A DNA stretch of 64,000 nucleotides, taken from a virus. The notes under the pieces are model-generated. The model was given only the letters and a program-made list of their open reading frames with translations. It ran no database searches and had not been told where the DNA came from. Shown here piece after piece: positions 28,502-64,000 of this stretch. The position numbers and the translations under genes are program-made. The stretch is from IMG/VR virus record IMGVR_UViG_3300028840_003717; one strand, 5' to 3'. Numbering within the stretch: the stretch's first letter is position 1; every line of letters begins with the position of its first letter.

Positions 28502-29302
28502 ATGGACTCCACCGTGGTCAACGCGGACTCCGTCCGGCTCATGACGTGGCTGGTGGCCCAGGGCGGAGCTGGCGGGATGGTGGACGCTATCCTGACGGAC
28601 CCCCCCTACAAGCTGTCCAGGCCGGACATGACCAAGCCGGACGGGTCCACGTTGACCAGGGACTACCAGGAGACGGAGGACCCCCTCCCCATCCATGAGC
28701 TGGCCGTGGCCTTTGACCACCTCCTGACCGCGGACGGGTCCGTCCTGGTGTGGTGTGCAGATCACCAGGTGACCACGTGGCTGGAGGCCCTGTCCGATCG
28801 GATGGACAAGGTGATGACGGGGGGCTGGATCAAGACCAACCCGGCCCCCAACATGAGACGGCGGACGTGGACCTCCACCCTGGAGCTGTGGGTGTGGGGA
28901 GCCAGGGGGGACTGGACCTTCAACTGGCCCGGACACCGGGCCGGGTTCAACACGGTGGCCGGCCCCCACCTGGCGTCCGGTGAGGCGGAGTATACGGGCC
29001 ACCCAAACCAGAAGCCCCTGGCCATCGTGGAGCCTCACGTCCGGGTGATGACCCGGCCGGGTGACCTGGTCCTGGACCCGTTCGCTGGGTCCGGGTCCTA
29101 CGTGGTGGCGGCCCACAGGATGGGCCGGAGGGCTGTGGGATTCGAGCTGGACGCGGACAGGGCCAAGGTGGCCCAGGACAGACTCCGGTCCGTGGTCCCC
29201 CAGGAGGAGTTGTTCCGGGAGGCGGAGCCCCCCAGGAGGCGGCCCTCCAAGCGGGACCAGGCGGACCTGTTCCAGGACATGACAGAGGGAGGTAGAGGAT
29301 GA
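28502..29302 (+). CDS. DNA methyltransferase, N6-A/N4-C beta class
   Basis: ILTDPPY precedes HPNQKP and LVLDPFAGSGS. Confidence 0.9.
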   Translation: MDSTVVNADSVRLMTWLVAQGGAGGMVDAILTDPPYKLSRPDMTKPDGSTLTRDYQETEDPLPIHELAVAFDHLLTADGSVLVWCADHQVTTWLEALSDRMDKVMTGGWIKTNPAPNMRRRTWTSTLELWVWGARGDWTFNWPGHRAGFNTVAGPHLASGEAEYTGHPNQKPLAIVEPHVRVMTRPGDLVLDPFAGSGSYVVAAHRMGRRAVGFELDADRAKVAQDRLRSVVPQEELFREAEPPRRRPSKRDQADLFQDMTEGGRG

Positions 29303-49722: not shown

Positions 49723-52644
49723 ATGGCCAAGCCCAAGACCACCAAGGCCAAGACGGCCAAGCCCAAGGCCCCACGGGTCCGGCCCAGGGCCGTGGATGAA
49801 CACGCGGAGGACTGGTATTCGGAGCGGCCGGAGTCCCCGGAGGCGGAGGCCATGAGGCGGCGGAGGGAGGTGGCCAAGGCCGTCAGGACCTCCCGTGTCC
49901 GCCAGGCCAGGGAGGACCCCAACGCCTTCGCGGAATATGCCTTTGAGGACTCCGTCACTGGAAACAAGCTCCGCCAGGCCAAGGTCCACCGTGACCTCCA
50001 GGAGGCCATCCGGGACAGGGACGTGGACCACCTCATGGTGGAGTTTCCGCGGAACCACGGCAAGTGTTGTGCGGCTGGAACGTTGATTCATCTTGAGGAT
50101 GGTAGCCTTGTCCCTGTCGAGGTTTTCGACAGTGGCCGGGTTCTCACAATGGACGACACGTTCAGGATCGTTAGTGGTGACGCCACGTGTCAGTCCAATG
50201 GGATCAAGGACTGCATTACCGTTTTGACGAAGACCGGTCGGGAGCTGGTGGTTTCACATGACCATCCGTTTCGGACTGGCAATGGATGGACAGCGGCGGA
50301 GGACCTGGACGCTGGTGTTCGTGTGGCTGTGATGAATGGATGCTCTGTCCCTGTCCAAGGAGACATGGACGAGCTGGACGCCTATGTCATTGGGGTCATG
50401 GTTGGAGACGGTGGGACGACGGATAGGGCTAGGGTGACGTGTTCTGATCAGGCTGTGTTGAACCAGGTGAGACAATGGTCCGATCGTCATGGATGGACGG
50501 TGTCTCATGTTGATGGTTACGACTATTCCATCACAGGTCACAAGGGAGCGAAGTCAGGAGGGCCAACCCACTATTTGAGAGACATGGGTCTTATGGGATG
50601 CAGATCTCATAACAAGACTATCCCGCATCAAGTATTAGTTGGTGGTGACCAAGCTAGGGCCGCGTTCCTTGCTGGATATTTCGACGCTGACGGGACGGTG
50701 AATAACAAGGATGGCGGTTCGGCTGAATTTTATTCCGTGAACAAGCCTTTGTTGGTGACTGTCCAGGACGTTCTGGCAAGGTTTGGGATTGTTTCAACCA
50801 TCTCTAGAAAGCGAGGGATGTATCGGAAGAAACACCACCTGTCATGGAGGCTGACTATCCGTGGCGATGGTTTGGACAGGTTCCGCAATATAGTAAGGCC
50901 AAGGGGGGACAAGGCTGACAGGATTGATTCTCTGGACTGTGGAGGAGGCGACGGCAATGGGGCCAAGCTGGATCTGTTTCCTGATGAGTTGTGGCGGCCC
51001 CATGTCAAAGCAACTGGTCTGTCCTTGCGTCAACAGGGTCTTCGGATTGACACAAAGAACAGGATCTCCAGACCAAAGCTCCGGAGGCTGGCGGAGCTGG
51101 ACGATAATGACAAGCTTCGTCAGGTGGCCAATGGTCAAGTCTTTTGGGATGAGGTTACGTCAGTTGAGCCTGTTGGCCCACGTGAGACCTATGATCTGAC
51201 CGTCTCCGGAACACACAACTTCGTTTCTCATGGATTCGTGACTCACAACACCACACAGGTTGAGATCTCCATCCTGTGGCTGTTGGGCCAGGACCCTAAC
51301 CTCCGGTTCAAGATCGTGTGTGAGTCGGACAACAAGGCCCAGGAACGTGTCCAACACTTGGCCCAACACATCATGGGGAACAGCCGGATCAGGGACGTGT
51401 TCCCCCACCTCCGTCCGGCCAGGCGGGGGGACTGGACCAAGAAGAAGATCGTGGTGGACCGGCCCCGGCTCATGAGGGACGTCTCCATTGAAGCCTGTGG
51501 GATTCAGACGGCGGCCACCGGCGGACGGGCTGACTACCTGGTGGCGGATGACCCGGTGGGGAGGCGGAACGCCCTGGAGATCCCCAAGCTCCGGGAGACC
51601 GTCAAGAGGGCCTGGCATTCAGATTGGTTGAACCTGTTGGAGCCCACCGGCCGGACCATCTACGTCTACACCCCGTGGCACACAGCGGACCTGTCCCACA
51701 AGCTCAAACGGAACCCGGTCTATCGTGTGTTCTCCCGTCCGATCGGACCCAAGATGGAGCCGGTGTGGGAGGCCAAGTGGCCCGTGGAGAAGCTGGAGGC
51801 CAAGCTGGCGGAGGTGGGTCAACGGGAGTTTGATCGTGGCTACCGGCTGATCGCCTTGTCCGGGGAGTATGCCACCGTCCAGGACTCATGGGTCCAATAC
51901 TGGACGGAGGAGCCCAACCTGGCGGACCTGATCGTGTTCACGGCCTATGACCTGTCCACCGGTGAGGGGGAGGACTTCTTCTCATCGGTGACGGTGGGCC
52001 TGGACGGCCGTGACCTGGGCCAGGCCCAGCCCAGGATCTACGTCCTGGACGCTTGGCATGGACACTTGACGTTCATGGCCCAGGTGGGAGCTGTCCTCCA
52101 GGAGGCCAAGCTGTGGCTCCCCCAGGCCGTGGCCCTGGAGGCCGTTCAGTATCAAGCGGTCCTCCCCCAGGTCCTCCAGGCGGCCCGTGATGACAAGCGG
52201 ACGGAGCTGACGGCGGACATTGTCCCGGTCCGTCCCCGGCTGTCCAAGGCCCTCCGGCTGTCCGCTATCACTCCCCTCCTGGAGCTGGGCCGTGTCTCTT
52301 TCAACCCGGCCCTGGACCCTGGACGGGGGCTCAAAGGGGACCTGGTGGAGGAGCTGACCATGTTCCCCCTGGCGGCCCATGATGACCTGGTGGACGCCTT
52401 TGTCTACGCCACGGCCCTGGCCGTGGACTACTCTATCCGGGCCGGTGGGAGGGGAGTTTCCGTGTCCAGCTACGGGGCGGACCGGTCCCGTGGTCAGGCT
52501 CCGGAGGCTCCAGTCCAGGCCCCGGATGGGGCCATTCTGACCTCCACCGGCCAGGCCAATGACGTCCCCGATGAGGCCGTGAGGGAGGCCGTGGAGGGGG
52601 GTTCAGTCCCTCCGATCTACTCCTGGGCCAACCTTGGGGATTGA
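49723..52644 (+). CDS. terL: Terminase large subunit with intein
   Basis: FPRNHGK|TT Walker A, GGRADYLVADDP Walker B, YTPWH, nuclease AYDLS..LEAVQYQ..FP.AAHDDLVDAF. Confidence 0.93.
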   Translation: MAKPKTTKAKTAKPKAPRVRPRAVDEHAEDWYSERPESPEAEAMRRRREVAKAVRTSRVRQAREDPNAFAEYAFEDSVTGNKLRQAKVHRDLQEAIRDRDVDHLMVEFPRNHGKCCAAGTLIHLEDGSLVPVEVFDSGRVLTMDDTFRIVSGDATCQSNGIKDCITVLTKTGRELVVSHDHPFRTGNGWTAAEDLDAGVRVAVMNGCSVPVQGDMDELDAYVIGVMVGDGGTTDRARVTCSDQAVLNQVRQWSDRHGWTVSHVDGYDYSITGHKGAKSGGPTHYLRDMGLMGCRSHNKTIPHQVLVGGDQARAAFLAGYFDADGTVNNKDGGSAEFYSVNKPLLVTVQDVLARFGIVSTISRKRGMYRKKHHLSWRLTIRGDGLDRFRNIVRPRGDKADRIDSLDCGGGDGNGAKLDLFPDELWRPHVKATGLSLRQQGLRIDTKNRISRPKLRRLAELDDNDKLRQVANGQVFWDEVTSVEPVGPRETYDLTVSGTHNFVSHGFVTHNTTQVEISILWLLGQDPNLRFKIVCESDNKAQERVQHLAQHIMGNSRIRDVFPHLRPARRGDWTKKKIVVDRPRLMRDVSIEACGIQTAATGGRADYLVADDPVGRRNALEIPKLRETVKRAWHSDWLNLLEPTGRTIYVYTPWHTADLSHKLKRNPVYRVFSRPIGPKMEPVWEAKWPVEKLEAKLAEVGQREFDRGYRLIALSGEYATVQDSWVQYWTEEPNLADLIVFTAYDLSTGEGEDFFSSVTVGLDGRDLGQAQPRIYVLDAWHGHLTFMAQVGAVLQEAKLWLPQAVALEAVQYQAVLPQVLQAARDDKRTELTADIVPVRPRLSKALRLSAITPLLELGRVSFNPALDPGRGLKGDLVEELTMFPLAAHDDLVDAFVYATALAVDYSIRAGGRGVSVSSYGADRSRGQAPEAPVQAPDGAILTSTGQANDVPDEAVREAVEGGSVPPIYSWANLGD
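50065..51249 (+). mobile_element. LAGLIDADG intein (395 aa) in the TerL Walker A motif
   Basis: Starts at Cys (CCAAGT), SHDHPF block B, motifs IGVMVGDG and FLAGYFDADG, ends TYDLTV..HNFV..THN followed by Thr; lower GC than flanks. Confidence 0.95.
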
Positions 52645-55918: not shown

Positions 55919-56212
55919 ATGGACGTCCATTATGAGGAAAAAACCGGCGGAGCAACGTTCGCGGCCGGTGAGGTCAAGCTGGCCTTTGTGGCCAGGCGGC
56001 TGTGGCTCCGCCACGTGGCCGGAGCTGGGGTGGCGGAGGTATCGATCGGTGAGGACTACGCCACCACCCACGTCAAGCTGGAGGGCCTGTCCGCGGGACT
56101 CCAGGGGACCCATCCCCATGAGGTGGAGATCGTGGCCACGTCCGGGAAGGGTGTCTCCAAGCTGGCCGTGAAGGGGGCCGCGGAGACCGTGGCGATCAGG
56201 GCTACGTCATGA
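55919..56212 (+). CDS. Hypothetical protein
   Basis: SD GGAGG; ATGA overlap with the portal gene. Confidence 0.6.
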   Translation: MDVHYEEKTGGATFAAGEVKLAFVARRLWLRHVAGAGVAEVSIGEDYATTHVKLEGLSAGLQGTHPHEVEIVATSGKGVSKLAVKGAAETVAIRATS

Positions 56213-58038
56213 GCCAGGCGGCGGAGGAAGCCCACCTCCGGCTGGTGGTGTCACAGTCCGGCTCCACGGCGGACGGCCTGGAGCTGACCAGGGACCGGCT
56301 GTTGAAGGGTGAGGAGCTGGTGGCCCAGCGGTCCAACCTCCAGGACACGGCCACGTCCATGGCCCAGGCTTTCGGTGAGGCCGGGACCATCCCCCCACCC
56401 TTTGAGCCCTTGGTCCTGGTCCGCCTCTACGGGGTGTCCAACAGCCTCCGCCAGAACGTGGACGCCCTGGTCCACAACGTCCACGGAGGGGGGTTCACGT
56501 TTGAGCCTGTCCTGGACCTGGACGCAAGTGAGACCAGGGAGACGGTCCGGATGGCCATGGAGATGGACCGGGAGCGTAGGGCGGAGATGGAGGCCGGGGA
56601 CAAGGACCCGGAGCCCATCAACCCGGTGACGGACCAGGAGGTGGATGAGCGGATCGAACAACTCCGGAACCAGTCCCGCCGGGAACGGGTCCGCCTCAAA
56701 GCGTTCTTTGACTATGCCGTCCGTGAGTCCAGTTTCGTCCGTCTCCGTCGCCAGGTGGGGGTGGACGCGGAGACAATCGGGTGGGGGGCCTTTGAGGTCC
56801 TACGGAACGCCAGGGGGGAGCCCAAGCGGCTCCGCTATGCTCCGGCCTGGACCCTCCGGGCCTTGCCACGGGCCAGGGAGGCCGTGGAGGTCAAGGACGT
56901 GGTGAGGACCACGGACGTGACGTGGGAGGAGATCACGGACACCAAGGCGTTCCGCCTCTACGTCCAGATCTATGAGGGCCGGTCCGTCTACTTCAAAGAA
57001 TACGGGGACCCCAGGACCGTGTCCTCCATGACCGGCCGGGTCTACAAGGACCCCAAGGACATGGAGGGAGCGGAGCCCAACGCCAGGCCGGCCACGGAGC
57101 TGTTGTGGTTCCGCCTGGACAACCCGGAGTCCGACGTCTACGGCCTGGTCCGATGGTCCGGGACCATCCTGTCCGTCCTGGGGAGCCGGGAACAGGAGGA
57201 GGTCAACCTCCTGTTCTTTGACAACAAGGCCATCCCCCCCTTGGTGGTCATGGTGTCCGGAGGTCACCTGGCGGCGGACGCGAAAGAGGAGCTACAACAG
57301 CTCATCAAGGACCACATCAAGGGCTCCCGTAACTTCCACCGAATCCTCATCTTGGAGGCGGAGGCCCAGGCCGGGACAGCTCCCCTGTCCGGCCTCCCCG
57401 GCCAACAGTCTGTCCGGATAGAGATCAAGCCCCTGACGGACGCGATCTTCAAGGACCAGATCTGGCCGGAGTATGACCGGGACAACAGGAGCAAGGTGGG
57501 TGAGTCATTCCGCGTCCCCCCCATCCTCCGGGGTGTGAGCCGGGACCAGAACAGGTCCACGGCCGGGTTCGCCTGGCGGATCACGGAGGACCAGGTGTTC
57601 CAGCCGGACCGGGATGACTTCGACTTTGAGATCAACCGGACCCTCCTCCGTGATCTCCGTGTCCACCTGTGGACCTTCAAGTCCAAGTCCACCTATCGTC
57701 CGGACCCGGAGGAGGTCCTGGGGAAGGCCGGGGAGCTGACACAGGCCATCCTCACCCCCCAGGAGGCCCGTGGGATCGTGGCGGCGGCCCTTGGGGCTGA
57801 CCTCCCCAGGGTGGACGCCACGTGGGCCAAGCTCCCCCTCCGGTATGCCCTGGCCGGGTTTGAGACGGAGGAGGCGGAGGCGGAGGCCACTACCCCCTCC
57901 CGGCCCGTTGACACCCCACCCCAGGAGGACACGGAGGAGCCGGCCGATGAGGCGGACCTCCCCGTCTCCAGGGTCAAGGTGTCTCCTGATACGTTCCGCC
58001 GGCTGTTCCCGGCGGACGTCCCGTCCGGAGACCGATGA
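56209..58038 (+). CDS. Portal protein (PBSX/HK97-like)
   Basis: PPPFEPL; DAETIGWGAFEVLRN..LRYAP; YGLVRW..NLLFFDNKAIPPLVVMVSGG; FRVPP..G; LTPQEAR. Confidence 0.9.
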   Translation: MSQAAEEAHLRLVVSQSGSTADGLELTRDRLLKGEELVAQRSNLQDTATSMAQAFGEAGTIPPPFEPLVLVRLYGVSNSLRQNVDALVHNVHGGGFTFEPVLDLDASETRETVRMAMEMDRERRAEMEAGDKDPEPINPVTDQEVDERIEQLRNQSRRERVRLKAFFDYAVRESSFVRLRRQVGVDAETIGWGAFEVLRNARGEPKRLRYAPAWTLRALPRAREAVEVKDVVRTTDVTWEEITDTKAFRLYVQIYEGRSVYFKEYGDPRTVSSMTGRVYKDPKDMEGAEPNARPATELLWFRLDNPESDVYGLVRWSGTILSVLGSREQEEVNLLFFDNKAIPPLVVMVSGGHLAADAKEELQQLIKDHIKGSRNFHRILILEAEAQAGTAPLSGLPGQQSVRIEIKPLTDAIFKDQIWPEYDRDNRSKVGESFRVPPILRGVSRDQNRSTAGFAWRITEDQVFQPDRDDFDFEINRTLLRDLRVHLWTFKSKSTYRPDPEEVLGKAGELTQAILTPQEARGIVAAALGADLPRVDATWAKLPLRYALAGFETEEAEAEATTPSRPVDTPPQEDTEEPADEADLPVSRVKVSPDTFRRLFPADVPSGDR

Positions 58039-59381
58039 CCAGCATGGCCAACGGAGGGCCGGTGACGGAGGCCGGCCTGGTCACGGACCTGGACTTCCGG
58101 TGGCTCCCCCCGGCGGAGCGTCAATTCTTCAAGCTGTCCCCGTTCCAGCTCACCGTGGCTCCAGGAGGCCACAGGGGGCCGCGGAGGATGGGGAGGGTCC
58201 TCCTGTCCGCCTGGGCCGGAGAAGGCGTTGTGAGCCGGCTGGGGAGGGCCAGTGACGGCGACACCAGGCGGATGGCCCTGGAGCTGGCGGAGCTGACCGG
58301 TGACCCCGTGGTGGTGGGGGAGGTGGACTCCGTGGAGGGTGTGGCTGGGGAGCCGGTCTACAAGGCGATCGGGATGGTGACGATGGCCAAGGCCAGGGAC
58401 CCCCTGTCCCCGGAGGCTTGGGTCCAGGAGGTCACCAGGCTGGCGGCCAGGCTGGGGGTGTTCGCGGAACAGGAGGCGGCCCACCTCACGGCGGAGGCCA
58501 TGGAGTGGTTCCGGTTTGATTTCGAGGATGCTACCGGACGCCAGATCGCCACGGCCACAGGTGGCCTCCGCGGGACCCTGGCCTCCCCCAGGGGGACCAT
58601 GGTCCGGAGCCAACAGGTAGCCATCACCAGGGCGCTACGGGCCGTCATGGCTCAAACCGGAGCCGGGTGGGCCAGGCTCCCGGAGATGGCCCCCAGGCTG
58701 GGCTCCACGTTCAACCTCCCGGACCGGCGGATCGCTCAATCCATGGCCCGTCATCATGGGTTCTGGGTTCGGAACCAATACGGCCGTGTGAGTCAATCCC
58801 TGGCCCGTCAGGCCCAGCCCATCATCCAACAGGGGATCAGCCAAGGGTTGGGCCGGGACACGATCGGCAAGGAGCTGGAACGCCAGATCCAGGGCGGCCT
58901 TCAGATGAGGTGGTATTGGCGGATCGTGGCGGCCAACCACATCTCCAGGGCCAGGTCCTACGCGGCCGGCTACACGATGAGGGCCGCGGGGATCACCCAC
59001 TACCGGATAGAGGCCATCCTGGACGAAGCCACCACCGAAACCTGTTTGATGCTCCACAATCGCTTGATGCCCATTGACGGGGCCATGGCCCGTCAGGAGG
59101 CCATCATGAGGGACCCGTCCCCGGACGGGGTCCTGTGGAATCAGCCTTTCATGAAACAGGGTGTCAACCCGGAGACGGGGGAGGAGGAGCTGTTCCTGGA
59201 GTATCCGGACAACACCAGGGCCACCGTGGCCACCGTCCAGGAACGTGGGGCCGGGACCGGCTCACCGGGGCGCTACTCCAACGTGATGAACAGCCAACAG
59301 ATGGTGTCCTCAGCCATTGGGTTCCCCCCCTATCACCATGCTTGCCGGACCACCCTGATCGCGGAAGTGGGGCCGGTGTGA
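58035..59381 (+). CDS. Head morphogenesis protein (MuF / SPP1 gp7-like)
   Basis: RIVAANHISRAR..YRIEAILDEATTETC..PPYHHACRTTL; follows the portal. Confidence 0.85.
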   Translation: MTSMANGGPVTEAGLVTDLDFRWLPPAERQFFKLSPFQLTVAPGGHRGPRRMGRVLLSAWAGEGVVSRLGRASDGDTRRMALELAELTGDPVVVGEVDSVEGVAGEPVYKAIGMVTMAKARDPLSPEAWVQEVTRLAARLGVFAEQEAAHLTAEAMEWFRFDFEDATGRQIATATGGLRGTLASPRGTMVRSQQVAITRALRAVMAQTGAGWARLPEMAPRLGSTFNLPDRRIAQSMARHHGFWVRNQYGRVSQSLARQAQPIIQQGISQGLGRDTIGKELERQIQGGLQMRWYWRIVAANHISRARSYAAGYTMRAAGITHYRIEAILDEATTETCLMLHNRLMPIDGAMARQEAIMRDPSPDGVLWNQPFMKQGVNPETGEEELFLEYPDNTRATVATVQERGAGTGSPGRYSNVMNSQQMVSSAIGFPPYHHACRTTLIAEVGPV

Positions 59382-59602
59382 TCCTGGCCGTGGCCATCAT
59401 CCTGGCCGTCCTGGTCCTCCTGGACCTCCGTGACATCCTCGAATCCGATCGGTCATAGGTAGTGGTGGAGGCCCCGGCCTGACCAGGTGAAGGCTGACCA
59501 GGACCAGGCCGGAGCCCCCGGGAGGGGAATGGCCTGTCCGGCCTACCACGGGGCGGAGGGCCAGGTCCAGATCTGCTATGGTCCCTCCCCAGGAGGTAGA
59601 GG

Positions 59603-60052
59603 ATGACAAGCAACCTGACGGCCCCCGGACGGATTCTTCAGGACCATGAGCTGGAGGAGGTCCGGGCCAAGATCACGGACACGGTCATGGAGACGTTCCG
59701 GCTCCGGCCCATGCCGTCCGGCAACATCACGGAGAAGGAACTACAGGACCGGCTGGACGTCACCGTGGAGATCTGGAACCACCTCTATGGTGTGTGTCGA
59801 TGGAGCCGGGATCGGGCCATGGACCACCTCCAGCCCCTCCTCCTGGCCTGTATCGACGGAGCCAACCTCCAGGACCAGCTCCCGGAGCCGGAGGAGGAGA
59901 TCAGGGAGGGGACTGTGGGCTGGGCTCCGGAGGTGATCCAGAAGGCGGAGGCGGAGCGTAGGCTGTCCGCCCTGGCCGTGGGAGAAGGCCACGTGATACA
60001 ACAGGGGGAGCCCCCGTGTGGGGAAAACGACGACACAGGAGGACAGGGATGA
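59603..60052 (+). CDS. Hypothetical protein
   Basis: GGAGGTAGAGGATG start context. Confidence 0.6.
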   Translation: MTSNLTAPGRILQDHELEEVRAKITDTVMETFRLRPMPSGNITEKELQDRLDVTVEIWNHLYGVCRWSRDRAMDHLQPLLLACIDGANLQDQLPEPEEEIREGTVGWAPEVIQKAEAERRLSALAVGEGHVIQQGEPPCGENDDTGGQG

Positions 60053-60552
60053 CCGTGGAGACCATCGATCAGGTGTTCGGAGCTGGTGAGCCGGAGACCA
60101 CGGAGATCAGCCTCACCAAGGGAGCGGACTTGGTCCGTGGGGCCGTGTCCAAGGCCGTGGCGGAGGGGACCCCCCAGGAGGTCACCAAGGCCATCACCCA
60201 ACGGGCCTACCACCTCACCAAGGCCATGGCGGCGGCCCCCGATGACGGCGACACCATCACCGTGGACGCGGACCTCCTGAAGGCCCTGGAGGCGGACGCG
60301 GCGGACGCGGTGGTCACCGGCTCCATGACGGAGGCCATGGAGCGGCTGACCAAGATGATGGCCCCGGCGGACGTGGACAGGACGGACGTGGACAAGGCGG
60401 ACCCCAAGCCGGACCAGGGTGGACAGCCCCCGGCGGACGCCACCCCGGACGGGGACGTGGCCTGGCCATCGGACCTCAACACGGCCCCGGACCCGGACGG
60501 CCTGGACGATTGGGGGAGGGACCCGGACCTCAACGCGGCCGGCCAGGAGTAG
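60049..60552 (+). CDS. Hypothetical acidic head-region protein
   Basis: SD AGGAGG; ends WPSDLN..WGRDP. Confidence 0.6.
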   Translation: MTVETIDQVFGAGEPETTEISLTKGADLVRGAVSKAVAEGTPQEVTKAITQRAYHLTKAMAAAPDDGDTITVDADLLKALEADAADAVVTGSMTEAMERLTKMMAPADVDRTDVDKADPKPDQGGQPPADATPDGDVAWPSDLNTAPDPDGLDDWGRDPDLNAAGQE

Positions 60553-60625
60553 TCCCGGCGGCCCCCCAGCCCTCACCCCCCCCCACAGGCTGGCCCGTGG
60601 AGGCTGGCCACCACGGAGGACCGCG

Positions 60626-62722
60626 ATGGAGACCAGGACGGTGGCCGTGACGGCCGATGATGACAAGGCCCTCCAGGCGGCCCAGGCGGCGGCCATGGAC
60701 CTGGTGGAGGCGGCCCGGACGTGGGCCTCCAGGACCCTGGAGGTGGTCAAGGCCCCCCTGGCCCTGGTGGTGGAGATCAGTGAGGTCCCCAACAGGGCGG
60801 CCGTCCTGGCGGCGGAGCTGGCCAAGCTCACCCCGGAGCGGACCACCAAGGCCGGACAGGACGGTCCGTTCCTTGACGCGGTGGACGCCCTGGTCCAGGC
60901 CCTCCAGGCCCTCCGGCCTGTCCTGGTCCGAATCGAGGCCCCCCAGGCGGAGGCCGTGGCCGTGGCCACAGGGTGGCTGTTGAGCCTCCAGGACCTGGTG
61001 GACAGGGCGGAGGAGGCCAGGGCGGAGACCACCAAGGCCGTCCCCGGCGGCGGAGTCCACGCCCACAGCCTGGACGTGGACCAGGACGGAGACCACGTCC
61101 ACCTCCTCCGGCTGTCATCGGGGGAGCTGGTCCTCACCGGCCGGGACGGAGCCCACAGCCACAACATGAACCACCTGGCGGCCGGTGTCCCCGGCGGAGC
61201 CCACGGCCACACGTTCCGGCTCCCGGACGGCCGTGAGCTGGCCGTGGCTCCAGGCGGCCCCCACCTCCATGAGGTGGAGGGGGAGACGGAGACCACCCAC
61301 GGCGGAGTCCACGTTCATGAGGTGGAGGTGGACGGGGAGGCCCTGTCCACCCTCCTCCCGGAAACGGCCGTGGACAAGGCCAGGGAGGAGCTGTTCAAGC
61401 TCCGTGGCCTGTGGGGGAGCCCAGCCGGGAAAACCAAGATCGCGGCCTACATCAAGGGCCGGCTCCCGGCGGACGTCCACACCTATGTTGAGCCCTTCGC
61501 CGGTGGAGCGGCCGTGTTCTTTTCCAGGGAGGAGCCCTCCCCGGTGGAGGTCCTGGCGGACGCCCACCCCCTGGTGGCCGGGGCCTTCAAGTTTGTCCGG
61601 GACGCCACGGAGGAGGACATCAAGCGGCTGGAGGAGATGGACTGGTCAGGCTCCGTCCGCCAGGCCACCAAGGTCCTGGAGATGGAGCCCAGGGATGAGG
61701 TGGAGCGTTTCTACCGGTTCGCCTATCGCCGGTGGGCCAGCTTCTTCCGCCAGGGGGAGGCTCCGGACCTCCACTATGACCGGACCGTGGACGGCAAGGC
61801 GGCCACCCTTATGGCCCGGTTCCGTGGCGTCCAGGAACGTCTCCAGGGGGTCCACATCCGGGAGGCGGACTACAAGGCCGTGGTCCAGGAATTCGACGGG
61901 CCGGACACGTTCTACTACCTGGACCCACCCTATGAGGGGTTCACCCAACAGGTGGGGGAGGAGGGCTTCTCCACGGAGGAGCTGGTCAAGGTCCTCCAGG
62001 GGGTCAAGGGCCGGTTCCTCCTCCACTACGGGGCGGACCGTGAGGAGGACTTCCTGGGCCATGGGTGGACGGTCCGTGTCCTGGAGACCAGCCGGACCCC
62101 AGGCGGAGCGGCTGGCGGACGTGACGGGACCAAGCTGTTGGAGGTCCTGAATTACTCCCCGGACCCCCAGGCTGACACCGGCAAGGTGGCCAAGGCGGCG
62201 GACCGTCCACACGGAGCTGTCCTCCCCGTGGTCAAGTCCGATCGTCCGGAGGAGGAGCGTTATATCCTGGGGGTGGTCCTGGAGCCCAATGACGGAGGGC
62301 CTGGTGTTCCCTTGGCCCCGGACACACAGGGGGACGTCTACTCCGCGGAGGAGATCCGCCAGGCGGCCCACCTGTTCATGGAGCACTACCGGAACCTGGG
62401 CCACCAACACCGGGAGCTGGTCACCGGCGGCAAGCTCCGGATCTTGGAATCCTACGTTGCCATGGTGGACATGGTGGTCCTCCCTGACGGACGGGCCGTG
62501 GGGGTTCCCAACCTCCTGGACGTGATCCGGACGGGGGAGATAGAGATCCCACCGGAGGCCCAGCTCATTTACCGCGGGACGTGGCTGTTGGGGATGAGGG
62601 TGGTGGATGATGACCTGTGGGAGGACTTCAAGGCCGGCCGGATCACGGGCCTGTCCATCGGAGGCTCCGCCAGGAGGGTCCAGGAGGCGGCCCCGGCTGG
62701 TGTGAGCCCAGATCCTACTTGA
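60626..62722 (+). CDS. Fusion: His-rich GxHxH repeats + Dam/D12-class DNA adenine methyltransferase + XkdF-like prohead protease
   Basis: GSPAGK..YVEPFAGGAAVFF..YYLDPPY; then ERYILGVVLEP..DTQGDVYSAEEIRQAAHLFM..HQH..ESY..GTWLLG..LWEDFKAGRITGLSIGG; one open frame. Confidence 0.85.
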   Translation: METRTVAVTADDDKALQAAQAAAMDLVEAARTWASRTLEVVKAPLALVVEISEVPNRAAVLAAELAKLTPERTTKAGQDGPFLDAVDALVQALQALRPVLVRIEAPQAEAVAVATGWLLSLQDLVDRAEEARAETTKAVPGGGVHAHSLDVDQDGDHVHLLRLSSGELVLTGRDGAHSHNMNHLAAGVPGGAHGHTFRLPDGRELAVAPGGPHLHEVEGETETTHGGVHVHEVEVDGEALSTLLPETAVDKAREELFKLRGLWGSPAGKTKIAAYIKGRLPADVHTYVEPFAGGAAVFFSREEPSPVEVLADAHPLVAGAFKFVRDATEEDIKRLEEMDWSGSVRQATKVLEMEPRDEVERFYRFAYRRWASFFRQGEAPDLHYDRTVDGKAATLMARFRGVQERLQGVHIREADYKAVVQEFDGPDTFYYLDPPYEGFTQQVGEEGFSTEELVKVLQGVKGRFLLHYGADREEDFLGHGWTVRVLETSRTPGGAAGGRDGTKLLEVLNYSPDPQADTGKVAKAADRPHGAVLPVVKSDRPEEERYILGVVLEPNDGGPGVPLAPDTQGDVYSAEEIRQAAHLFMEHYRNLGHQHRELVTGGKLRILESYVAMVDMVVLPDGRAVGVPNLLDVIRTGEIEIPPEAQLIYRGTWLLGMRVVDDDLWEDFKAGRITGLSIGGSARRVQEAAPAGVSPDPT

Positions 62723-62767
62723 CCTCACCTTGGGTGGTGGTGTGTGATATAGTCCCACGTTAGAACG

Positions 62768-64000
62768 ATGGCACACCCCCTCACCGATCAGAGTGACGAA
62801 GCCCAGGGGACGGCCGGTCCCGATCAGGCGGAGAGTTTTGTCCACAGGCTCACGGACCTCCTAGTTGAGGAAGTGTCCGCGGTGGACAGGGCGGCCAACC
62901 GGCGGACCATCGTGGTCAGAAAAAGAGACAACGGAGGGACCATGCTTGGACAGGCAATCCATGACGGGGCGGAGCCCACCAGGGACATCGATCCCACCTG
63001 GACCGTGGACGTGACCAAGGAAACGCCCCCGGAGGCCCAGGGAGGCCCCCAGGACGGCGACAAGGCCCAGGGGCAGGGTGAGGGCCGGGACGGAGCTGAC
63101 GGCGGCCAGGGTGGCCAGGACAAGGCCGTGTGGACGGACGCCTACATCAACGACCTTCCGGACTCCGCGTTCCTCTACGTCGCCCCCGGTGGGGAGAAGG
63201 ACGCGGACGGGATGACCACCCCCAGGTCCCTCCGCTACTTCCCGGTGAGGGACGACAAGGGGGAGCTGGACCTCCCCCACGTCCGGAACGCCCTGTCCAG
63301 GATTCCCCAGGCGGACATCCCCCAGGAGGCCAAGGACGCGGCCAAGGCAGAGGCGGAGAAATACCTGGAGGAGCTGACGGCGGAGGCCCAGGAGGGTGAG
63401 GAGGCCGCGAACGGTCAGGACGGCCAGGACAAGGCCGTGGACACCCCGGACGGCCAGGAGGCCGGTGACACCGGGTCCGAGGGCCAGGATGGCCAGGACG
63501 CGGCCGGAGCCGGTGACGTGGCCAAGGCCCTGGCCCCGGTCCTGAAGGCCATGGGGGCGGAGCCGGAGGACAAGGCCAGGGACCTCCTGTGGATGGCCAT
63601 GGATGAGATCGGCCGGGGAGCCCTCCGGTCCGATGAGGACAAGGCGGCCGTGTCCGGCCTCCTGGACGCCCTCCGTGGGGCCGTGATGAAGGCGGAGGCC
63701 CCGGAGGCCCAGGACGCGGACTCCGGCTCCACCGGGGCGGACAAGGCCACGGCGGAGGTCATGGAGGCCGTCAAGCTTCTCCAGGTGGCCCTGGGCCGGA
63801 TGGTGGCCGGGGAGTCCCTGGACGCGGAGGCCCATGAGGCCGTGGCCCGTGCTCATGAGATCCTGTCCGCCTCCACCAGCTCCGATGAGCCGGCGGCGGA
63901 GGGTGATGGCCAGGACCAGGCGGAGATGGCGGACCGTGAGGAGACGGCCAAGGCCGGGGCCAAGATGTCCGCGGCCAACCGGCGGAAGTTCAGGGACGCC
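62768..64000 (+). CDS. 3'-partial head protease/scaffold-type protein
   Basis: Translated by hand from ATG 62768: RLTDLLVEEVSAVDRAAN; AYINDLPDSAFLYV..RYFPV..LDLPHVRNALSRI; acidic linkers; I saw no stop before the window end. Confidence 0.7.
   Translation, partial: MAHPLTDQSDEAQGTAGPDQAESFVHRLTDLLVEEVSAVDRAANRRTIVVRKRDNGGTMLGQAIHDGAEPTRDIDPTWTVDVTKETPPEAQGGPQDGDKAQGQGEGRDGADGGQGGQDKAVWTDAYINDLPDSAFLYVAPGGEKDADGMTTPRSLRYFPVRDDKGELDLPHVRNALSRIPQADIPQEAKDAAKAEAEKYLEELTAEAQEGEEAANGQDGQDKAVDTPDGQEAGDTGSEGQDGQDAAGAGDVAKALAPVLKAMGAEPEDKARDLLWMAMDEIGRGALRSDEDKAAVSGLLDALRGAVMKAEAPEAQDADSGSTGADKATAEVMEAVKLLQVALGRMVAGESLDAEAHEAVARAHEILSASTSSDEPAAEGDGQDQAEMADREETAKAGAKMSAANRRKFRDA

Follow-up and report, generated by a model that had tools for sequence, protein, structure and literature searches.

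The gene at positions 60626..62722 (+ strand) of a metagenomic phage sequence encodes a genuine single polypeptide of 698 amino acids in which, as judged from the open reading frame, Pfam matches and an AlphaFold2 model, a helical bundle, a module of HxH motifs, a Dam-type DNA methyltransferase (MTase), a linker, an XkdF-type prohead protease domain and a short tail follow one another. The arrangement suggests that the protease domain is an anchor which would load the methyltransferase into the procapsid, and that the methyltransferase would then be released by cleavage of the linker, ejected with the DNA and able to protect the DNA of the phage early in the next infection; a probability of about one half is assigned to this reading, which is based on comparison of sequences. 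The window, that is, the whole stretch of 64,000 nucleotides that was analysed, belongs to a metagenomic phage contig of 86.7 kb, and the contig segment L003 reaches beyond its end.

The fusion frame is read through 698 codons without a stop. A Shine-Dalgarno sequence (GGAGG, 60615..60619, +) lies 6 nt 5' of the ATG at 60626, and the preceding gene stops at 60552, ahead of both. This ATG was preferred over a GTG at 60419 because orthologues of 695 and 693 amino acids align with the fusion over 99% of the length of the fusion. The identical protein is encoded by 7 contigs in which at least two datasets are represented and which include ENA and Logan assemblies made from different runs. Full-length identity to it is 49-50% in the orthologues P0002 and P0003, and P0003 is read on 20 contigs at a locus that is syntenic with that of the window. 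A single match to the family PHROG 13242 extends across both the MTase and the XkdF domain (aa 261-616, E 8.8e-76). For a protease-only product made from an internal start, the linker contains no ATG, and its GTG codons have no Shine-Dalgarno-like sequence ahead of them. One relative, P0102 (160 aa, 80% identical), had the appearance of a stand-alone protease and was rejected as such: its contig begins 14 nt upstream, and it is a fragment because its frame runs open into the contig end.

The AlphaFold2 model of the whole fusion was built on 40 relatives and has a mean pLDDT of 76.5, with the MTase (aa ~260-512) and the XkdF domain (aa ~545-678) modelled at high confidence. The MTase domain (aa ~261-511; 61406..62158, +) is assigned by Pfam, by alignment with DpnM and by Foldseek to the D12 class of N6-adenine DNA methyltransferases (Dam-type, alpha order). 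The Pfam family PF02086 (MethyltransfD12) matches aa 268-439 with a score of 59 bits (cut-off 22). The motifs stand in the alpha order: the AdoMet-binding motif I, EPFAGG (aa 289-294; 61490..61507, +), whose F291 is nearly invariant in the family alignment, is followed by the recognition region and then by the catalytic motif IV, DPPY (aa 433-436; 61922..61933, +), whose D433, P434 and P435 are nearly invariant. The domain is judged to be complete because the alignment with DpnM, which pairs residues 19-282 of the 284 in that protein with aa 267-510 of the fusion, spans practically the whole enzyme. Compared by Foldseek with E. coli Dam, Mcbe1, DpnM and T4 Dam, the model of the domain gives target TM values of 0.72-0.83 with E 1e-11, and the identity to characterised MTases in the structural alignments is just 17-20%. 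On the motifs and the modelled fold, the fusion is predicted to carry an intact D12/Dam-type MTase. The sequence GATC occurs 318 times in the 64-kb window against 317 expected, an absence of depletion which says little about the specificity of the enzyme.

The protease domain is separated from the MTase by a disordered linker (aa ~512-543; 62159..62254, +), in which the pLDDT falls below 50 for aa 520-541 and which varies among relatives; it is a candidate site of proteolytic release. The XkdF-type prohead protease domain that follows (aa ~544-684; 62255..62677, +) is delimited by Pfam, by conservation and by a model of the domain, and ends in a short tail, about aa 685-698 (62678..62719, +), which is disordered in the AlphaFold2 model. 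PF14550 (Peptidase_S78_2/XkdF) has a score of 75 bits (cut-off 24), and phrog_3017, a family of head maturation proteases, matches the fusion with E 1.6e-25. In an alignment of 60 XkdF sequences, D566 (62321-62323, +), H595 (62408-62410, +) and S677 (62654-62656, +) are invariant, and they are the obvious candidates for the catalytic residues of the putative protease. Modelled alone, the domain reaches a pLDDT of 87. When this model was compared by VIA-align with 48,161 chains, the T4 gp21 prohead protease (5jbl_A) came first, with a Z of 6.7, which being below 8 is not decisive, and an rmsd of 3.6 A over 112 aligned residues; the next row had a Z of 4.1, and the protease of varicella-zoster virus (VZV) was third with a Z of 3.7. 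A Foldseek search of the PDB with the same model gave no match at E <= 0.001. The VIA-align comparison lends moderate support to a putative assemblin-like fold.

Two further modules occupy the N-terminal part of the protein. The first is a four-helix region (aa 10-135; 60653..61030, +) with a pLDDT of about 85-93, which is also delimited in a domain map made with phmmer. The second (aa ~140-245, about 110 aa; 61043..61360, +) is defined by its motif count and by its relatives, and contains six HxH motifs, spread over aa 143-233, whose 12 histidines are all invariant in the five closest relatives. According to the phmmer map, P0002, P0003, P0085, P0098 and P0195 have both the helical bundle and the HxH module, and the HxH module itself is found in 17 proteins that end in XkdF, where it stands ahead of the MTase, behind the MTase or in a protein without an MTase (P0098, P0218). 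The beta-rich region that contains it (aa 136-255) is poorly modelled by AlphaFold2, with low confidence. The module resembles the Pfam family YmaF weakly, at an E of 0.05 that is below threshold; publications on YmaF gave no clue to its role, and the ESM Atlas gave no usable match to it (TM below 0.4). It is predicted, from its histidines, that the module probably binds metal.

The preliminary description of this DNA, made by eye from the letters and a list of open reading frames, had placed one 698-aa frame in the head module, with a Dam/D12-class MTase bearing intact EPFAGG and DPPY motifs at about 61409-62155 and an XkdF-like protease domain at about 62220-62675. The single frame is borne out by the translation, and its place in the head module by the neighbouring genes. 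An assembly or frameshift artefact, which the description had named as one outcome that would undo it, is contradicted by the preservation of the frame in independent assemblies and in diverged orthologues. The HMM comparison that it had called for places both the D12 MTase and XkdF above the Pfam thresholds, and both sets of coordinates agree within a few codons. Its anatomy was correct for these two domains, while the first 260 amino acids, with the helical bundle and the six-fold HxH module, had been missed.

The genes around the fusion form a head module in which the order is an intein-bearing gene, an amidase on the opposite strand, small ORFs, a portal protein (56209..58038, +; PF04860, phrog_12), a MuF-like minor head protein (58035..59381, +; a weak match to PF04233, and phrog_13868, phrog_241 and phrog_115), two small ORFs, the fusion, a 512-aa acidic coiled-coil protein which is probably the scaffold (62768..64000, +, continuing past the window end to L003:13681) and an HK97-fold capsid protein. 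The fusion therefore sits between the portal and MuF-like genes on one side and the scaffold-like and capsid genes on the other. Among the genes called within 10 kb on either side of the fusion, no other protease family was recorded, so that within the head module the fusion alone is a candidate for the maturation protease. The intein-bearing gene upstream of the module encodes 973 amino acids with Intein_splicing and LAGLIDADG_3 domains (window about 50626-52644, L003:1-2019), and by its position it is presumably the large terminase. The second MTase that had been reported for the early region was located at 28502..29302 (+) in the non-structural part of the window; it is unrelated to the first and belongs to the N6_N4 class (PF01555 N6_N4_Mtase, E 3.4e-24). 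Several short palindromes are strongly avoided in the window relative to an order-2 Markov model, among them GCGC, for which the depletion noticed earlier by eye amounts to 9 observed against 111 expected, CTAG (21 against 104) and, as an addition, GTAC (3 against 69), and GGCC (1736) and CCGG (1233) are extremely frequent in window 1-64000.

The recurrence of the fusion was evaluated by an exhaustive search with HMMER through 1.84 billion representatives, which gave 7,687 matches, 234 of them at E <= 1e-30; together with an orthologue search this yielded a collection of 218 related proteins. XkdF is present in 168 of the 218, with a median of 0 residues behind it, and in 165 of the 218 it is joined to between one and four D12 MTase domains that lie upstream. 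Motif IV is kept in 242 of the 249 MTase domains of the fusions, and the GxSxGG motif in 152 of the 168 XkdF domains. The survey of the frequency of XkdF-MTase fusions that the preliminary description had asked for thus returns 165 cluster representatives as well as the family PHROG 13242, and the fusion is less unusual than the description had implied. Other cargo is also found upstream of XkdF, including an ATP-dependent ligase, LigT (a 2H phosphoesterase), DUF5824, DUF6582 and InPase, and the same clade of MTases is fused in P0072 to MuF and in P0077 to an HK97-type S78 protease. One metagenomic protein of 1532 amino acids (P0085) has the bundle, HxH module and MTase as they are found here, then an ATP-dependent DNA ligase domain, and XkdF last, so that the cargo train seen here is extended in it.

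Exchange of modules extends to the neighbouring gene. Residues 122-209 of the scaffold-like protein (NDLPDSAFLY...FPVRD...LDLPHVRNALSRIPQ), which Pfam does not recognise, match with 58% identity (E 9e-28) a module of P0004, a 3xMTase-XkdF protein, in which the module is placed between the last MTase and XkdF; several further fusions have the same motif immediately before XkdF. The presence of a scaffold-like module inside the fusion P0004 indicates that modules move between protease and scaffold genes.

Close relatives were searched for in several further collections. A megablast comparison of positions 56000-64000 with 50,697 phage records gave no match, and in a tblastn comparison of the whole protein with the same records the matches listed covered at most 39% of it, corresponding to one domain, so that no cultured phage among those matches has both domains in one place. 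Scans of genome contigs for hosts or prophages gave no relative. A scan of IMG/VR found distant relatives only, of which L008, L009, L010 and L012 are at 36-39% and the rest have XkdF only; a single-protein scan of IMG/VR gave no match.

The fusion invites comparison with the phage polyvalent proteins, for which Iyer, Burroughs, Anand, de Souza and Aravind (2017) state, in their passages on these proteins, that an assemblin-like peptidase is always at the C terminus, and predict that the proteins are likely packaged and delivered with the DNA (PMC5512222). As described in those passages, polyvalent proteins share with the fusion the combination of several unrelated domains, a phage of the portal-terminase kind and a head protease-like domain at the C terminus (PMC5512222), and the same architecture is found here, with four modules of which XkdF is the last and with portal and intein-bearing genes upstream. 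There are also differences. The MTase treated in the passages concerned is part of an EcoKI/TaqI-like MTase-helicase dyad of the DarB type, whereas that of the fusion is D12/Dam; the fusion has one recognisable enzyme and two unassigned modules; and neither a D12/Dam-XkdF fusion nor the HxH module appears in the passages on polyvalent proteins (PMC5512222). Judged by those passages and by sequence comparison, the locus would be of the kind predicted and would add to what was in 2017 a general, computationally predicted idea; what sets it apart is that it has a single MTase, a helical bundle at the N terminus and the module of six HxH motifs.

The DarB protein of phage P1 is a head-carried, MTase-containing protein which protects incoming DNA, according to the parts of PMC5512222 that deal with it. 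In function it is the analogue of what is proposed for the fusion. The two proteins differ in that DarB has an MTase of another class and an SF2 helicase and is without a protease anchor, while the fusion has a D12 MTase and XkdF. The DarB type is characterised by an EcoKI/TaqI-like MTase, an SF2 helicase and LPD36, and by Pfam the fusion has an MTase of the D12 class and no helicase domain. The fusion may work like DarB, yet it is not a member of the DarB type. To be loaded, P1 DarB requires further proteins of the Dar and Hdf sets.

Proteins of cultured phages provide a second comparison. Their XkdF proteases share the domain at 30-35% identity and, like the fusion, are encoded between the portal and capsid genes, but they are without an MTase: gp3 of Pseudomonas phage Kassivere (L002:3003-3467) consists of XkdF alone (154 aa), and in gp35 of Lactococcus phage 56701 (L001:4878-5927; 349 aa) XkdF is N-terminal to a scaffold-like tail. 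In Lactococcus and P. putida phages, several XkdF proteins are labelled 'DNA methyltransferase' in GenBank and in PHROG 1530; these were rejected as further cases, as they have no region of the size of an MTase, and the label has probably been carried over from fused members of the family (PHROG 1530). In the effectors and toxins fused to MuF (the SPP1 gp7 / Mu F family), an internal head protein is the carrier of enzymatic cargo, as it is here; unlike in those fusions the carrier here is a protease, and a MuF-like gene is present separately at 58035-59381, while in P0072 it is a sister of the MTase of the fusion that is joined to MuF. PHROG 13242 combines MTase and XkdF as they are combined here, without the first 260 amino acids and without annotation or literature, and a literature search found no paper on a Dam-XkdF fusion or on its presence in virions.

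In the mechanism that we consider most probable, the C-terminal XkdF domain would enter the procapsid in order to process scaffold and capsid proteins, and because it must enter, it would act as an anchor that drags in the helical bundle, the HxH module and the MTase. After assembly the protease would probably cut the disordered linker (aa 512-543), and the resulting piece of ~55 kDa, too large to leave the shell, would be retained there and later be ejected together with the DNA. A methylase made from a late gene could in this way already be in the next cell at the very start of infection, and phage DNA that is entering or replicating early might be methylated before phage gene expression and be protected from restriction, in a manner analogous to P1 DarB. 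Loading into the procapsid is the best explanation of the comparative pattern because the pattern combines a fixed C-terminal anchor, interchangeable cargo, three head carriers and conserved catalytic motifs; the conservation suggests that the catalytic motifs of the MTase are under selection.

The preliminary description had likewise suggested that the methylase is brought into the capsid by the protease to which it is fused, and this half of its proposal fits the constancy of XkdF at the C terminus, the variety of the cargo, the MuF and S78 fusions and the prediction made in the passages of PMC5512222 on polyvalent proteins. Its other half, methylation during packaging, is weaker. Methylation inside the capsid would be unlikely because no supply of AdoMet is to be expected there and because a few dozen copies of the enzyme would face hundreds of sites, for which the 318 GATC sites of the window may serve as an example.

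Several considerations count against this mechanism. By the time a head is mature, its prohead protease has normally been digested and is gone, and the MTase cargo might be destroyed along with it. The gain from injecting an MTase is not obvious if the DNA in the virion is already methylated, and the phage has its second MTase (28502-29302) besides. Finally, the XkdF family is only putatively proteolytic, and Foldseek offers no solved relative.

According to the main rival, the work of the MTase is confined to the cell in which the phage is produced: the fusion would provide for late, high-level co-expression with the head genes, the progeny DNA would be methylated before it is packaged, and the MTase would then be cleaved or degraded. 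Orphan phage MTases normally act in just this way, prohead proteases usually digest themselves, the fusion is a late gene of the head module, and the lack of avoidance of GATC (318 against 317 expected) is compatible with protection by methylation. An account confined to the producing cell leaves unexplained, however, why internal head proteins (XkdF, MuF and S78) are the sole fusion partners of this clade of MTases, why the anchor is constant at the C terminus, and why unrelated enzymes such as a ligase and a 2H phosphoesterase occupy the same slot; it is regarded as less likely than the cargo mechanism, with a weight that must still be taken seriously.

It is distinctly improbable that the MTase, HxH and helical parts are a structural or scaffold-like extension, for example a core or filler determining the size of the head, and that methylation is vestigial. 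Such a role would be in keeping with the scaffold-like extensions that XkdF proteins of cultured phages often have, as in the 349-aa gp35 of Lactococcus phage 56701, and with the long helices that the AlphaFold2 model places in the N-terminal 135 amino acids, but it accords poorly with the retention of motif IV in 242 of 249 MTase domains, with the completeness of the Dam fold and with the presence of a separate scaffold-like gene downstream. The joining of two genes by an assembly or frameshift artefact is a negligible prospect: apart from the long spurious ORFs which high-GC genomes produce, here too on the opposite strand, no support for it was found, and against it stand the 7 contigs with the identical protein, among them ENA and Logan assemblies of different runs, the full-length orthologues at 49-50% identity with P0003 on 20 contigs, the MTase-then-XkdF order in 165 cluster representatives and the truncation by a contig end of the sole apparent stand-alone protease, P0102.

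If the loading of cargo by a head protease is the correct reading, then head proteases would be a widespread route for the delivery of enzymes, beside MuF fusions, the internal proteins of T4 and the Dar proteins of P1, and the cargo enzymes seen on XkdF include methylases, ligases and phosphoesterases. Late-gene methylases in phage genomes would have to be read differently, and XkdF would offer a natural modular handle with which chosen proteins could be loaded into capsids. The HxH module that travels with this handle is a compact, strongly conserved and previously undescribed domain. More tentatively, and at somewhat less than even odds, XkdF may be a general handle for loading into the capsid interior, by which a Dam-type methylase and a twelve-histidine, probably metal-binding module would be carried to the next host, as in a P1 Dar system that is anchored to a protease; if so, an anti-restriction activity would be supplied to the infected cell before any phage gene is expressed.
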